NCBI GenBank assembly: GCA_963717525.1
Contig: OY970343.1
Location: 1,568,001-1,632,000 of the forward strand
DNA: 64,000 nucleotides
Origin: an uncultured Methanoregulaceae archaeon
GTDB taxonomy: Archaea > Halobacteriota > Methanomicrobia > Methanomicrobiales > Methanospirillaceae
Direction of reading: 5' to 3'
Shown here: positions 438 to 41,838 of the stretch, one piece after another
Numbering within the stretch: position 1 is the stretch's first letter
Layout of the letters: each line of letters starts with the position of its first letter
Translations under genes and position numbers: made by a program
Notes under the pieces: generated by a model
What the model was told of the DNA's origin: nothing
The model's database searches: none
What the model saw: only the letters and a program-made list of their open reading frames with translations

Positions 438-802
438 TATTCTTTCTCCCCGAGTTTTTCGACGCGGCGCTTGTCATCGAGCTTGAGCCTGGTGATCTCA
501 ACCTTGGATGGATCGACCGGGCGCGGAACTTCGGTGCCGTCAACCTTGGTGGACGAGACACCGTGGACGATGATCTTCAGGTTACGGGTGTCGATATCGT
601 CGACGAGTCCTTCCTCGCCGACGTGGTCGCCACGGGTAACCTTGACGGTATCGCCTTTGATAACGCGCACGGTCTTCTTCGCATATTGTTCTTTGAGCGT
701 TGCCGAGAGCGGCGCGTTGAGAAACTTGGACTTCATGTGTGAAGGTGCGTCATACCGCGCCTTTCTCTGCTTGCGCGGCTGTGAACTTTTAATTCTGACC
801 AT
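437..802 (-). CDS. rpl24: 50S ribosomal protein L24
   Basis: SSQPRKQRK...KGDTVKVTRGD (KOW motif); operon position. Start set at MVRIKSS. Confidence 0.96.
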   Translation of the reverse strand: MVRIKSSQPRKQRKARYDAPSHMKSKFLNAPLSATLKEQYAKKTVRVIKGDTVKVTRGDHVGEEGLVDDIDTRNLKIIVHGVSSTKVDGTEVPRPVDPSKVEITRLKLDDKRRVEKLGEKE

Positions 803-813
803 GTCCCGCCACC

Positions 814-1212
814 TCACACAATGATTGTCGCCATGGAGCCGAGCTTCGGGTACCGCTCTGCCACTTCACGGGCGACCGGTCCCTTGATCTCGGTTCCTTT
901 TGGCTCGTTCTTTTCATCGACAACAACGACCGCGTTGTCGTCAAAGGAGACGCGGATGCCATTGGGGCGGCGCATCTCTTTTTTCTGGCGGATGACCACG
1001 GCCCGGACCAGCTTCTTGCGCATGTCGGGCGTGCCCTTCTTCACGGTCACCGTCGCGATGTCGCCAAGGCCCATCTTGGGCTGGCGCCGGCGCACTCCAT
1101 GGTAGCCGAAGACCGAGACGATCTGCACAACACGTGCGCCGGTGTTATCGGCACAGGTCAGCTTGGTTCCCGTCGCAAGCGCCCTCGGCGTCTTGGACTG
1201 CTTTGCCTTCAT
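814..1212 (-). CDS. rpl14: 50S ribosomal protein L14
   Basis: CADNTGA...[16 protein letters not shown]...[13 protein letters not shown]. Start set at MKAKQSK. Confidence 0.97.
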
Positions 1213-3192: not shown

Positions 3193-3611
3193 CACTTCAG
3201 CGGTACGTACTTACTGCCCCTTGTTGCACCGATACCGGCGGAACCGTGGGAGACCTTCTTTCTGGTGAGTGCAAATTCTCCAAGGTAGTGGAAGACGGAC
3301 TCGGGCTGGAACTCAACTTTCATGAATTCCTTGCCGTTGTAGATCTCGATGCTCTTTCCAATCATCTCGGGCATGACTATCATATCACGAACATGGGTCC
3401 TGATCTTCTCGTCCCCGCCCCGGATCTTTGCAAGCAATGTCTCTTCGCCGCGGTTGAGCCCGCGGTTGAATTTGCGGCGTGCACGGGCTGGCATCAGGGG
3501 GATGAGTTCGCTCAGCCCCATGGCCTTGAGCTCGTCGATCTTATACCCGCGGTAGGTGAACTCTTCACGCCGTCTGGGCATTCTCTTCTGTGTCTTTTTT
3601 GGTGCTGCCAT
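3192..3611 (-). CDS. rps19: 30S ribosomal protein S19
   Basis: FTYRG...[15 protein letters not shown]...[11 protein letters not shown]...[12 protein letters not shown]. Confidence 0.97.
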
Positions 3612-3616
3612 ACCGT

Positions 3617-4332
3617 TCACTTCCTGCTCTTACCTGTCTGGCGTGCTGCCACGGATCCAACAGTCCTTCCCGGAGAAGTACCCGGGCAATGGTCTTGGGG
3701 CGACCCGTGTGCTGGTGGCCACCGCCACCGAACGGGTGATCGATGACGTTCATCGCGACACCACGGACACGCGGCCAGTTGGACGCGGTGTTCGCCATCT
3801 TGTGGTACTTGTTACCGGCTTTTACAAACGGCTTCTCGACACGCCCGCCACCGGCGACAATGCCGATGGTAGCACGGCAGCGTGCGTTGAACCACTTGGT
3901 CTTGCCGCTGGGCATCCTGACACCGACGCGTTCCCCAATCTTATCAACAACAACTGCCTGTACCCCGGTGGCACGGACGAACTTGCCGCCGTCATTGGGG
4001 CGTGATTCGATGTTGCAGATGTAGGACCCGGTCGGGATGCTCTGGAGCGGGAGTGTGTTCCCGTTCTTGACTTCGACGTCGTTCCCCCATGCTACGGTCT
4101 CACCAATACCCATTCCTTCGGTGACCAGCATGTAGACCTTTGATTTATCTTCGAGCTGCACAAGAGCAATCGGGGCGTTTCTCGCCGGATCGTGCTCGAT
4201 GTCGATGATCAGGCCGCTGATCTTCTTTGTTCCGTCCCCGACATGCTTCAACTCAGCCTTGTACCGGTGGGATGGGGCGCGATAGGTCGGGCCTCCCCTG
4301 CCCCGGTTCTGTGTAGTAATTCTATGTCCCAT
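3617..4332 (-). CDS. rpl2: 50S ribosomal protein L2 (apparent 1-nt frameshift near 3681)
   Basis: HDPARNAP, WPRVRGVAMNVIDHPFGGG. Adding one base at GTACCC (3678-3683) restores the conserved ending ARGTSPGRTVGSVAARQTGKSRK* with stop at 3617. Confidence 0.95.
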
Positions 4333-4342
4333 GTTCCCCACC

Positions 4343-4594: not shown

Positions 4595-5341
4595 TTACCT
4601 TCCCTCCAGTCGTATGACGGCACTTTCGGTCCAGACGGTCAGGCGGCCTGCCTGCATGCCCGGGGCGAGGTGCTCGACGTTGAGCTGGTCAACGGTCACC
4701 ACATCCACACCGGCAAGGTTGCGTGCGGCGCGGAACTCGGGGCCCGAGGTAACAATGAGCAGGCTCTTTCTCTGCTTATACCTGCGGCCACGGAGCTTGC
4801 CCCTGCCTGCGCGGACCTTGCGGCTGTCTTTTGCACGCTCGACATCGCTATAAACACCGATGCTTGTCAGTGCGGAGATGACATCCTGCGTCCGTCCGAG
4901 GGTTTCAAACTTATCCTCGAAGATCAGGGGGACGTTGCCATCAAAGGTGTGTCCCCGGCTGCTTATGAGGTCGGCGCGGATGCTTGCTGCAACCGCAGAG
5001 CGGAATGCCTTCTGCTTCTCTTTCTGGTTGATCTCTTTAATCAGTACCTTCGCGGTGACCGGAGGGTGTGCCTCACGTCCGCCTTTTGCCTGCGGGACCT
5101 TTGCTGCACGGGAACCGTTCTTGAGACGGGGTACATGCGATGCGCCCCGGCCGCTTCCCCAGCCTACCGCGGAGGAACAGATGCCGGCAAACGGGTATGA
5201 GCCGTGCGGCTGCCGCCGGGTGCTCTGGAGTGCCATCACTGCCTTCTTGATCAGGTCCGGGCGGTACTCTTCGGAGAACATGGCCGGGAGTTCGATATCC
5301 TTTGCCACTCCGCCTTCAATTGTCTTAACCTGCGCTTTCAT
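4595..5341 (-). CDS. rpl4: 50S ribosomal protein L4
   Basis: RPDLIKKAV...WGSGRGASHVPR...KGGREAHPP...LAPGMQAGRLTVWT. Confidence 0.97.
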   Translation of the reverse strand: MKAQVKTIEGGVAKDIELPAMFSEEYRPDLIKKAVMALQSTRRQPHGSYPFAGICSSAVGWGSGRGASHVPRLKNGSRAAKVPQAKGGREAHPPVTAKVLIKEINQKEKQKAFRSAVAASIRADLISSRGHTFDGNVPLIFEDKFETLGRTQDVISALTSIGVYSDVERAKDSRKVRAGRGKLRGRRYKQRKSLLIVTSGPEFRAARNLAGVDVVTVDQLNVEHLAPGMQAGRLTVWTESAVIRLEGR

Positions 5342-5347
5342 CTCTGA

Positions 5348-6361
5348 TCACCCCTGCTTGCTCTGGACGCTCACAAACTGGATCGCGGGCGAGCGAATAA
5401 CATGTTCTCCCTGGCGGATTGCCGGGCGGATACGGATAAGGCGTTTTGCCGGGCCCGGGATGGACCCCTTGATAACAACGTACGCGTTCCTGAGAACACC
5501 GTAGTTAAGGAATCCCCCTGCCGGTGTGATCTCCGCACCGTTCTCACCGATCTTTAAAATGCGCTTGTTGAACTCGGTGCGCTGCTGGTAGCCCATCTGG
5601 CCGCTCTGCGGGACTTGCCACCGCACATGGTGGGGGTTCCATGGCCCGAGCGTACCAACGTGACGCTCTTTCCCACCGACAGCGTGTTTCCTCTTTCGGA
5701 GAGCGATTCCCCAGCGCTTGACCGGTCCCCGCGTACCTTTACCGATGGTGATTGCAGTAATATCGGCATACGCACCGGTCTCGATCACATTGTTGAGCCG
5801 GATCTCTTTTCCGAGCACCCCTAGGGCAAACTCGTACTGCTTTGCAACATCCCCGCCGGCGATCTTGATCTCCATGATATCGGGTACCTTCTTTGGCACA
5901 CCGGTCATGGTTGCCGGCTGTGTGTACGCAACCGCGTAGATCTCTGCCACCAGGTTTGCGGCAAGGGCGTCTGCACATTTCTTCTTTGCCGCTGTACTGT
6001 CATAGTTCTTGGGCACGGTGACCCTGCGGGAGAGCTGGCTGTCCATCGGTTCTGCCCAGATCTCCGTGAACGCATGTCTGCCGTAGGTGTCCTGCGAATA
6101 TGCCCGGATGGCTGCAACTTTCATGGTCGGGATCTCTATGATCGTTACCGGGACCATAATCTCCTTGCCTTCTGTCGGGCTGTCTTTGTGGTCATCGACC
6201 ATGAGAACATGCGTCATCCCCACTTTATAACCGGCAAAGCCAAGCAACGCGGGTGCACCGGTGTGCTCTGGCCATGACTTGTATTTGGGTATGGGGCTCT
6301 GTGCACGTTTTCGTGGGCTGAATGCCAGTGAGCCTCGGCGTGGTCTGTTTATCTTTGGCAT
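5348..6361 (-). CDS. rpl3: 50S ribosomal protein L3
   Basis: [47 protein letters not shown]. Confidence 0.97.
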
Positions 6362-6893
6362 GTGTCAATCAATCCTTTTCATTCGTGTTTTTTTGGTTTT
6401 TTAATGGACACGAACTCTTGAGATGAATCCGAGACTGGAGTGATATCACTTGCCTGTCCGGTAAGCCAACACGCGATCCGGCACCATCGAACAGGGCCCG
6501 GATACTACCCGCATTTCGCGAATAGTATCTGTTCCGCCCTTTGTACCGGTTGCCCCGGAAACCGGGCAGCGTGGATAAAGATATCCCGCCACCCGGTGAA
6601 TTTCCGGTGTTTCTTTTTCTCGCGAAAGAAGACCCTGACATTGACGTATCTCCTGATTTTTTTATCAGGAGAACAGGCTCGTTATGAGAAACGTCCACCT
6701 GTACGTCACGGTCAGATCCAACTCTGTCAGCCCGTTGTGACGAATCACAACTCCTTCTCGGGATCCTCCGCATGGATGCGGAGGTCACCAATCGGGGAAA
6801 TACCCACGGCAGCATCATGCCCTGTGTCAATTCTGGCCTGATTCCGCCGGTGCCGTACCTTCTTTGCAGGAAGGCAGGGCAGGGATACCCCCA
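6362..6893 (-). ncRNA. Candidate large structured RNA / 5' leader of the L3 ribosomal protein operon
   Basis: No credible ORF. More than 10 complementary stems, with UUCG, GCAA and GCGA loops when read on the minus strand. TATA-like sequence at 6916-6933 upstream. Boundaries approximate. Confidence 0.6.
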
Positions 6894-6904
6894 TATCGGC
6901 TTCC

Positions 6905-6935
6905 TTAAATATTGATTAAAAGGGCATATATATGT
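6905..6935 (-). promoter_or_regulatory. Putative TATA-box promoter for the leader and ribosomal operon
   Basis: Minus strand reads CATATATATGCCCTTTTAATCAATATTTAAG, about 25-35 nt before the first stem. Confidence 0.45.
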
Positions 6936-7015
6936 ATGCCAGTGTTCCGGGGAACCAATCGTCCCGCAACAGCCTGGCGTTCATGAGGACTCACCCGTAC
7001 ACAAACACCGTGCAT

Positions 7016-7420
7016 CTATCCGAAATAGATCTCCCCTTCATCAGTGATATAGATCTGCACATCCTCGCAGATACACCGGGCCTTGTATGACTGGGGGCGC
7101 GCTTCCCTGAGACGGTTGATAAGAGAGATTGTATCGTATTTCACCTTGATCTTGGCTTTTTCAGCCTCAGCGAAGATCATGCCCGGGACCTCAAACAGAT
7201 CGGTTCCGGACGGGATTGTGCAGAGATGCGTGGCATCAAGAGTATACAAAAATTCAAGCGTCTCTTTTGCCCGCCGGATATTTTCCATTGCAGACTTTTC
7301 AATCGTGCAGACATTGGCTTTTGAGGTGCTGATGATGTCCGCGATCTGCTGCTGGGTCATTCCCTGTTTCCGGTACCGGAGTACTTCCATCTGCCTGTCG
7401 GTGAGAAGACCATCTTTCAT
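7016..7420 (-). CDS. tfx: Tfx family DNA-binding protein
   Basis: LLTDRQMEVLRYRKQGMTQQQIADIISTSKANVCTIEKSAMENIRRAKETL is the Tfx N-terminal HTH pattern. Confidence 0.88.
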   Translation of the reverse strand: MKDGLLTDRQMEVLRYRKQGMTQQQIADIISTSKANVCTIEKSAMENIRRAKETLEFLYTLDATHLCTIPSGTDLFEVPGMIFAEAEKAKIKVKYDTISLINRLREARPQSYKARCICEDVQIYITDEGEIYFG

Positions 7421-7768
7421 AACTATCCATTCCATTCCGGGAACTTAAACACTTTTCGTTAACATAGTACCCGCTGCGAAGATCAATCGGGACCTCATTT
7501 GTAATTATAACTTGAAAATATACCTCGAAAATTGTTATTTCACCGGGAAGCTCCCGGCTTTGAACAGGAGAAATCAACAATGAAGAGAAGAAGGCACCCT
7601 TTTTTTGCCCTGGATTTTCCGGCCTGGACCAAGGTTAAAGGAGGGGGCCAAATGTTGCAGGTGCAATAAACAAAGAAACCGCTTATCCGGGGTAAAAAGT
7701 GATTTCAAAATCTTTATAAGAACACCGGGTCATAATGTGCTATAAAACAAAATAGAGGTGAAATTTCA

Positions 7769-26789: not shown

Positions 26790-27483
26790 ATGAAGATAGC
26801 AGTCACCCGTCTTGCAGGAAAGGAGGGCCGGGATGCAGCCCGGTGCGCAGCATACGGGCACGCGTGCTACAGCGTCCACCCGCTCCGCTCCGAGATCCAA
26901 AACGAGGTCGTCTCGGCGTTTGTGGAGGCTGTCGAACGCGGGGAGTTCGACTGCCTCTTTTTCACGAGTGCACTTCCGGCAAAGATCCTTGCTCCTCTCC
27001 TCAAAAAGACCCCCAGGGTCATCGCGATTGGCCCCGAAACGGCACGGGAACTGGAGCGGTGCAGGATTGCCTGCGAGACCCTGCCCGGCTTCTATTCCCG
27101 CGATTTTGTCCCGTACCCTGGGAGACTGGATCAGGGGAAAGACGATCGGTCTCCCCCGGGCCGATGTCCCGAACGCCCCCCTCATCGATGCGATTGCCCA
27201 CGCGGGAGGAAAACCCCGGGAGTTCCGTTGTTACCGGCTCGCGCCGACCAATGAGCCGCTCGACCTTGACCAGGCCGAGGCTGTCCTTTTTACCAGCGCG
27301 ATGTCGTATAAAAAAGCGATCTGGACTCCGCGTTCGGATCTGCTGGTGATGGCTATCGGGGAGGTCACGGCCGGGGCGATGATGGGAGGAGGTACGCTGC
27401 CGGCGATTGTCGGTGATGGCTCTCTCGAGGGGACGCTTGCGGCGTTAAACGAACATCGGGGACGAATATGGATCATCCGATAA
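26790..27483 (+). CDS. hemD: Uroporphyrinogen-III synthase (apparent frameshift near 27116)
   Basis: MKIAVTRL, FFTS, AIGPETA. Removing one C at GTACCC gives FVPYLGDWIRGKTIGLPRAD...LFTSA...AIGEVTA. Confidence 0.82.
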
Positions 27484-41414: not shown

Positions 41415-41429
41415 GGTATCACAATAAGC

Positions 41430-41736
41430 GGGGACGTGTTATCGGTCGACTGTACGTTACTCCTTTTGCCAAAGTACTCATCCTCCGCCCCGTTACCCCA
41501 TGGGCGCCGGATGTCTGCGGTAAGTCTGCTCCCTTCCGGGCCTGAACCGGTACCCGCAGCGACAGGTCGCCATTCCCTCCGGAATTTTGATCCCTGGCCA
41601 TCGACCTCATGGGACGAGGTTTCAACGTCAGAATACACAGGCTCCAGCAGATCGTTGCAGCCTTCGTCAAACTTCGCCCCCCGCGTACCGACGGTTTCGG
41701 GTTACAAGTGACGCCGAGCCACCCGGGCTAGTCCCC
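41430..41736 (-). ncRNA. ffs: Archaeal SRP (7S) RNA
   Basis: Minus strand: 5' GGGGACTAGCCCGGGTGG...TGTAACCCGAAACC (Alu domain); helix 8 GGTTCAGGCCCGGAAGGGAGCAGAC; helix 6 CCC-ATGGGGTAACGGGG; 3' GTCCCC pairs with the 5' end; about 307 nt. Confidence 0.92.
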
Positions 41737-41838
41737 ATATAACTTTGTCTGCCGGTCAATAAATCCTTGTCACGCAGGGGACCAATCTCCCCGGGGGATA
41801 TCCGGAAATCCTCTTCGACTCGTCGCGGTACACGTTTT

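Follow-up and report, generated by a model that had tools for sequence, protein, structure and literature searches.

A structured leader of the rpl3 operon in Methanomicrobiales whose core very probably descends from a methyltransferase gene

Introduction

What is the nature, and what is the origin, of the roughly 544 nt that precede the first gene of a ribosomal-protein operon in an uncultured Methanoregulaceae archaeon? The locus lies in a 64,000-nt stretch of DNA (contig OY970343.1 of assembly GCA_963717525.1, positions 1,568,001 to 1,632,000), which is called "the window" in the following and to which all coordinates refer. A preliminary description, made by a model from the sequence alone, had proposed a densely structured RNA at this place, i.e. 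an unusually large ribosomal leader, a riboswitch-like element or a co-transcribed non-coding RNA. Few cis-regulatory RNAs are known in archaea, according to the accessible text of PMC7247131. We therefore examined structure, conservation, genomic context and origin of the region.

Results and discussion

A long folded leader at the head of the rpl3 operon

The operon is encoded on the minus strand. Its first gene in the list of open reading frames (5348..6361) and the gene downstream of it (4595-5341), which we take from their translations to be rpl3 and rpl4, are followed by more ribosomal-protein genes. On the other side lies a gene for a Tfx-family DNA-binding protein (7016..7435, minus strand; PF14601), and synteny showed that tfx is the upstream neighbour at most loci of the order, irrespective of whether a methyltransferase gene (see below) is present or absent. 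A BRE/TATA-like promoter of the operon is predicted at 6925..6940 (minus strand), based on its sequence and its conserved spacing to a 5′ motif. A TATA-like box is found 17-25 nt before this motif in 94 of the 132 leaders and genes examined, and the combination occurs only once in this genome. Because the box precedes the conserved 5′ motif, we infer a leader start near 6905, so that the leader extends over about 544 nt from there to the rpl3 ATG (6362..6905, minus strand). The lengths of 91 gene-less leaders of the order range from 381 to 696 nt, with a median of 552 nt, and the distance from the core of the leader (see below) to the start codon is 230-430 nt. The leader is single-copy in the genome, and in the genomes searched the element is always found in sense orientation upstream of rpl3. 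Contigs from RNA runs of relatives span the core in four of four runs, some of them bridging to the 3′ part; these contigs lack strand and start information and may stem from DNA. Relatives make up a small share of each run, and contigs do not allow an expression level to be read.

The proposed folded RNA at the head of the operon is borne out by the folding energy of the minus strand and by its conservation in relatives. The stretch 6362-6893 reaches -223.8 kcal/mol, compared with -172.7 +/- 7.1 kcal/mol for 100 dinucleotide shuffles (z = -7.18). The plus strand of the same stretch also reaches z = -6.45, and therefore energy alone leaves the strand unsettled. For 20 other stretches of 544 nt the median z was -1.2 (8 shuffles each), with two values near -5, one of them from a stretch with a tRNA. 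The leaders of 18 genera, one each, have a median z of -4.0, and 14 of the 18 are below -3 (10 shuffles each). The minus strand folds into all ten stems of the preliminary description, close to where it had placed them. Minor corrections apply to two of them; the stem at 6765-6784 has 8 bp and a 4-nt loop, and the GCAA loop at 6858-6874 requires a bulged C, the isolated minimum-energy structure leaving a 7-nt loop. The view that the region has no credible reading frame can be maintained: a 153-codon frame with a TTG start (6369-6830) has no Pfam match, and a sense frame of at least 150 codons is present in only 2 of 39 leaders of the genus. It was also correct that the region is not SRP RNA, which sits at 41428-41738, and an Rfam scan gave no match to RNase P.

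A catalogued centre within a larger fold

The Rfam model RF03135 matches at 6635..6715 (minus strand) over its full length (positions 1-85 of 85) with 55.8 bits, the gathering cut-off being 34.5. Besides it, the other Rfam families, including SRP, RNase P and riboswitches, gave only chance matches (E 4.8-9.3). RF03135 is the L4-Archaeoglobi ribosomal leader candidate (Eckert and Weinberg 2020, PMC7247131), a three-way junction that is identical with the "multibranch domain" of the preliminary description and whose closing helix here reaches 6718/6631. In the part of that publication available to us, 254 examples (54%) are within PF02598 methyltransferase genes and 215 (46%) outside of them, L4 was picked as the ligand by prior only, and the motif was graded borderline; one non-overlapping example was tested and had no similarity to the gene. 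The terms "pseudogene" and "pseudoknot" are absent from the text of its supplement 1, of which 3 of 39 pages are pictures, and figure S2 may show more.

The present element shares with RF03135 the full-length match and the position on the sense strand upstream of rpl3-rpl4. It differs in extent, i.e. about 200 nt plus a 5′ helix, with P1, P4, P5, P9 and a kissing loop, versus 85 positions. The earlier suggestion that the RNA may be undescribed thus applies to about 460 nt outside the model, while the central 81 nt belong to the candidate already in Rfam. A search of the literature outside subscription journals revealed no published account of the larger fold, of the pseudoknot or of the repeated release from a gene.

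The 5′ domain (6787..6905) consists of helix P1 (6900-6895 with 6792-6787, extended by 6892-6883 with 6805-6794), which encloses hairpins P2 (6881-6851) and P3 (6849-6807). It is followed by a core of about 200 nt (6590..6790), which matches the middle of a PF02598 gene (about codons 100-170, see below). The core contains, in addition to the three-way junction, hairpin P4 (6765..6784), which lies beyond the Rfam model, hairpin P5 with a UUCG-containing loop (6734..6751), and hairpin P9 (6593..6607). Further downstream are variable hairpins (6475..6589), including P10 at 6586-6573, and the 3′ end (6368..6427), with an AAUC/CAUC strand (6427-6422), hairpin P12 (6412-6384) and the predicted ribosome-binding site AGGAUUGAU (6376-6368). 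All of these elements are on the minus strand. The 3′ end is conserved in the genus, and the 3′ third and the variable hairpins beyond P10 are lineage-specific and align poorly.

The preliminary description had looked to conservation and covariation in relatives, and only helix-level tests were significant. They used the helices of this genome's fold and the genus alignment, and their P values are too small because pairs were treated as independent. Within the genus (n = 42), the observed versus expected numbers of compensatory events are 19.7 versus 2.2 for P2, 8.8 versus 0.6 for P4, 12.1 versus 0.8 for Pc, 3.0 versus 0.09 for P9, 6.8 versus 0.7 for P10, and 2.2 versus 0.2 for Pa. P1a, P5, X, Y and P12 are 94-100% paired in the genus with zero events, and P1a is nearly invariant. 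Within the order (n = 132), all three stems of the three-way junction covary (Pa 7.5 versus 1.3, Pb 4.3 versus 0.1, Pc 16.6 versus 2.4), as do P5 (14 versus 0.5), P4 (16.2 versus 4.3), P9 (6 versus 0.9) and P7 (2 versus 0.3). The GCGA-capped stem of the preliminary description (P8) forms in this genome, but as a conserved helix it is unsupported (0 events versus 0.7 expected).

In an independent alignment of 44 sequences, 84.4% of the cells pair, compared with 35-44% in slid controls, and 23 of 36 pairs have two-sided changes; for P5 these were seen in 7 of 7 pairs. Across genera, the own 5′ strand of P1 beats foreign strands in 16 of 20 cases and shuffled strands in 18 of 20. An all-pairs, R-scape-like G-test on a sequence-only MAFFT alignment (132 sequences, 215 columns) yielded a single pair with E < 0.05, which is an indel artefact, and the best value of an all-pairs test for co-substitution on branches was E 0.5 with the same alignment.

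Strand X (CCGAGA, 6756..6761, minus strand) complements UCUCGG at 6434-6429. The resulting helix is 94% paired in the genus without covariation. A downstream complement is present in 82 of the 86 sequences that have CCGAG, versus 25 of the 46 without it, and the cognate strand beats foreign ones in only 18 of 32 genera. These values are suggestive of a long-range helix by which X closes the leader near the start codon. A second candidate, helix Y (6731-6725 with 6471-6465), was rejected; it is 95% paired in the genus, shows no covariation and won the cognate test in 15 of 32 genera, and a leader stretch of family f5 considered as a Y partner turned out to be wrong. In single-sequence folds X and Y seldom exceed p 0.4.

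In most relatives, the inner loop of the junction (6683..6690, minus strand, in this genome) carries the motif GUGCA, which complements UGCAC in the loop of P9, and the pair is also present in the intact genes of the order. Both loops were found in 58 of 132 sequences, neither in 72 and only one in 2, as classified with patterns that were tuned after viewing the data; with rougher versions the discordant cases numbered 10 and 15, most of which were parsing errors. When the loops are left out of the tree building, 7 of the 8-9 loop changes coincide on the same branches, compared with 0.4 expected. Six sequences from two sister genera combine GUGGA with UCCAC, and one combines GUGGA with UUCAC, which, judged from the sequences, probably represents one compensatory event and a wobble pair. 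Because the clade of the genome studied here has lost both loop motifs, the contact is not essential everywhere.

A methyltransferase gene as the very probable origin of the core

An intact gene of about 280 codons occupies the place between tfx and rpl3 at three loci, and the two genes that were tested both match PF02598. The intact gene has the same slot, the same promoter motif and the same tfx neighbour as the leader, and it lies directly before rpl3 in 31 of 33 intact loci (the best-scoring ones). PF02598 (COG2106) comprises SPOUT methyltransferases of the SPOUT1/Ptch family, associated with m3U at the peptidyl-transferase centre; this modification is made by the enzyme family in animals, and in Haloferax the family is the predicted m3U enzyme, as far as the available text of PMC11641110 and PMC2584109 shows.

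A profile of 42 leaders of the genus matches the three intact transcripts over about 200 nt, with E values from 5e-35 to 4e-29. With the same profile, the first 30 nt or so of the leader match the 5′ end of the intact-gene transcript (E 0.003-0.006). The homology is therefore collinear at the nucleotide level and at an orthologous position, comprising the 5′ 30 nt and the core of about 200 nt. The remaining flanks of the leader in this genome, about 310 nt, align to the gene no better than shuffled sequences (p 0.07-0.62). For 11 leaders, 17 of 44 flank comparisons had p <= 0.05, the 3′ test being unclean because it included P9.

A codon alignment revealed an in-frame insertion of 18 nt in 4 of 4 intact genes of the order and in 0 of 29 outgroup genes. 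The insertion forms hairpin P5, which is also present in the non-coding leaders. The shared, order-specific insertion points to the gene of the order itself as the ancestor of the leaders. In summary of these comparisons, the core of the leader is very probably a relic of a PF02598 methyltransferase gene: it is homologous to the middle of the gene and occupies its slot. In contrast to the gene, the leader has no reading frame, the frame being broken in the core, and a functional PF02598 gene of about 280 codons was found neither in the leader nor elsewhere in the genome (assembly 87% complete).

Repeated loss of the gene and retention of the RNA

Of 201 genomes of the order, 4 have the PF02598 gene, compared with 80 of 151 in the phylum. 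Five ribosomal proteins from 41 genomes were used for a tree (FastTree topologies), in which the two genera with an intact gene fall within two different families. An approximate AU test (2000 replicates, delta lnL 154.5) rejects the alternative that all gene-less lineages form one clade. If descent was vertical, the gene was lost six times or more, and eight times on the tree as drawn; fewer losses would suffice if the gene had passed from one of the two genera to the other. Genus g52 belongs to another family; four of its five loci are broken, each with 4-5 collinear blocks and a kept core, and one is intact. This decay is independent and younger. Two split PF02598 genes (G251:C1:2228222-2228975 and G260:C8:219411-220164) still contain RF03135 and may represent early decay or assembly errors.

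Within the genus, 34 of 36 genomes have matches to the leader DNA, as do 43 of 61 relatives. With an iterated profile, the core was detected in 113 of 116 rpl3-upstream regions of the order; the RF03135 model alone found 17 of the 20 regions tested, 14 of them above the cut-off. The core is also present in records named Methanoregula and Methanoregulaceae (pattern scan of contigs: 6 loci, 4 relevant). In most of the phylum, the element sits inside a translated frame. In several gene-less families the motif could not be detected (0 of 18 and 0 of 19), and therefore it is dispensable there.

Some leaders deviate from the typical form. Five gene-less leaders of family f7 (L177, L178, L181, L183 and L184) look by eye as if they had a worn core 250-450 nt before rpl3, and leaders of this family gave no match with RF03135 or with our model R1. 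A minimal leader of about 130 nt (L192:1338-1464, genome G232) has a weak R1 match (E 0.04) and is possibly the shortest form. In genus g2 (L061, L068 and L174-L176), the junction is followed, just 3′ of the core, by several UUCGCGA-like units in tandem rather than by a single one.

Intact genes bear a trace of selection on the RNA. In 30 of them, the codons of the core are more uniform than the others, with a top-codon share of 0.69 (24 codons) versus 0.52 (97 codons), p = 1e-5, a value that is too small because the genes are related. Genes that adjoin rpl3 have the motif in 16 of 16 cases tested, 13 above the cut-off. In contrast, it was found in 0 of 4 genes detached from rpl3, nor was it found anywhere else in those four genomes. 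In three of the four, the region before rpl3 was inspected and lacks the motif as well. Being absent at the gene, in the genome and before rpl3, the motif was lost altogether in these lineages. The RNA travels with the operon, not with the enzyme. That the gene was lost repeatedly while the fold was kept indicates that the fold probably controls the operon; to be kept when the gene dies and to be undetectable when the gene leaves rpl3 is the behaviour expected of an operon regulator. The published motif was deemed doubtful because half of its copies lie in a gene, and the present pattern reverses that doubt.

Possible functions of the leader

The leader is structured and linked to rpl3, its core is homologous to the gene, and the gene was lost repeatedly. 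By analogy with known ribosomal leaders, the folded core may well be the place where a protein encoded by the operon binds and may mediate feedback on the rpl3 operon, a reading that we hold to be somewhat better than an even bet. The likeliest ligand would be uL4, otherwise uL3. In this scenario, the ancestor would have had a cis-acting RNA overprinted on the first gene of the operon, which encoded the PF02598 SPOUT rRNA methyltransferase. The dispensable enzyme would have been lost repeatedly, and the promoter, the 5′ end and the RNA core of about 200 nt would have stayed, while the remaining leader sequence shrank and refolded into hairpins. The three-way junction, the flanking hairpins and, in most lineages, the kissing loop would bind the operon protein. 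When rRNA is scarce, the protein would bind the leader and alter how the region around the ribosome-binding site pairs or is processed, and operon expression would drop.

The ribosome-binding site is predicted to be mostly paired (mean unpaired probability 0.31-0.46 in six families, values that have no control), and it becomes free in the prediction when the leader is cut to 45 nt. A helix-level test revealed no covarying anti-SD helix. A search for sequence mimicry of 23S rRNA was negative, with 14 shared 8-mers versus 25.8 in shuffles, and model R1 had no match in the rRNA locus. This result, the distance between core and start codon, and the lack of the motif in several gene-less families speak against feedback. 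As a mere lead, an arm of the form GGG..GA..AG..CCC resembles 23S positions 343-355, which we take to be helix 20, near the uL4/uL24 site.

The best comparison is the S10 leader of E. coli, a long structured leader before an operon that encodes uL3 and uL4, as is the case here; it is bound by uL4 (PMC10931766, available text). The differences are that the E. coli leader has a narrow bacterial range and acts with NusA and a Rho-independent terminator (PMC10931766), whereas the archaeal leader has no Rfam match to it and its protein binding is putative. The accessible text of PMC10450193 contains nothing on this operon. A much wider claim would be that a tertiary-folded RNA of at least 200 nt, with junction, kissing loop and long-range helices, is overprinted on a gene across the Halobacteriota, controls the main large-subunit operon of archaea by an undescribed mechanism in which a ribosomal protein, a metabolite or an ion takes part, and was freed at least seven times. 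We regard this as possible but doubtful; if true, nature would offer a series of stages that leads from mRNA to a purely regulatory RNA.

Among the alternatives, the one that survives best, although unlikely, assumes the same origin and takes the RNA as a platform for processing or stability: a nuclease or chaperone would read the fold, and cleavage would free the ribosome-binding site without any ribosomal protein. The predicted release of the site upon trimming to 45 nt is compatible with this. Long leaders of ribosomal operons in Methanolobus psychrophilus are processed, which raises stability and translation (PMC5499594, in the part available); these methanogen 5′-UTRs are likewise long and folded with a hidden ribosome-binding site, but average 154 nt, compared with about 550 nt here. 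On the other hand, near-invariant unpaired bases and the order-wide kissing loop suggest specific recognition, although processing and feedback by an operon protein could both apply.

It is less probable still that termination or cleavage releases the leader as a stable RNA that serves a separate function, e.g. in ribosome assembly or as a metabolite sensor. P1 and X could indeed close a compact domain, and in RNA run X3 the contigs are deeper over the core than over rpl3, a depth that cannot rank expression. However, the RNA is single-copy and was never found apart from rpl3 in the genomes searched, its length and periphery vary widely, and in most of the phylum it is inside a translated frame. 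The absence of the motif from detached methyltransferase genes argues against sensing on behalf of that enzyme. Nothing favours a riboswitch-like element or a separate non-coding RNA, two options of the preliminary description, over a cis-acting leader.

A neutral pseudogene remnant, the folding of which would reflect general selection for structured, nuclease-resistant leaders, is very unlikely. It would agree with the poorly conserved, lineage-specific 3′ third and with the loss of the motif in some families. For the core, sequence comparison largely refutes it: the same stretch of about 200 nt is kept in every loss and has compensatory changes, while the catalytic coding parts vanish, and the synonymous constraint predates gene loss. 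The weakest alternative takes the non-coding leader as the ancestral state of the order, to which transfer or recombination would have brought back the four intact genes. This would suit the rarity of the gene (4 of 201 genomes) and the reduction of losses by one transfer between two genera. It is most improbable, given that the gene precedes rpl3 in 31 of the 33 intact loci examined and that the intact genes carry the order's P5 insertion and promoter motif, so that any donor lay within the order.

If feedback by an operon protein on a gene-derived leader applies, the locus would show clearly how a regulatory RNA can be what is left of a coding gene. Natural variants that have or lack the kissing pair are present among the relatives.

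Other features of the window

Within rpl2 (3565-4341, minus strand), the L2 frame departs at about 3680 from the conserved C-terminus, the latter continuing in another frame, which is probably due to a one-base sequencing error; therefore, homopolymers in the leader may likewise have a wrong length. A weak partial R1 match at 26829-26887 (minus strand; 16.6 bits, GC 0.73) is absent from the genome search and probably due to chance. The SRP RNA mentioned above is of the archaeal type and is encoded on the minus strand (172.6 bits), and six tRNAs are found elsewhere in the window. The coding sequence of rpl14/rpl24 at 500-1044 (minus strand) folds with z of about -5 (8 shuffles) and is possibly a second structured stretch.
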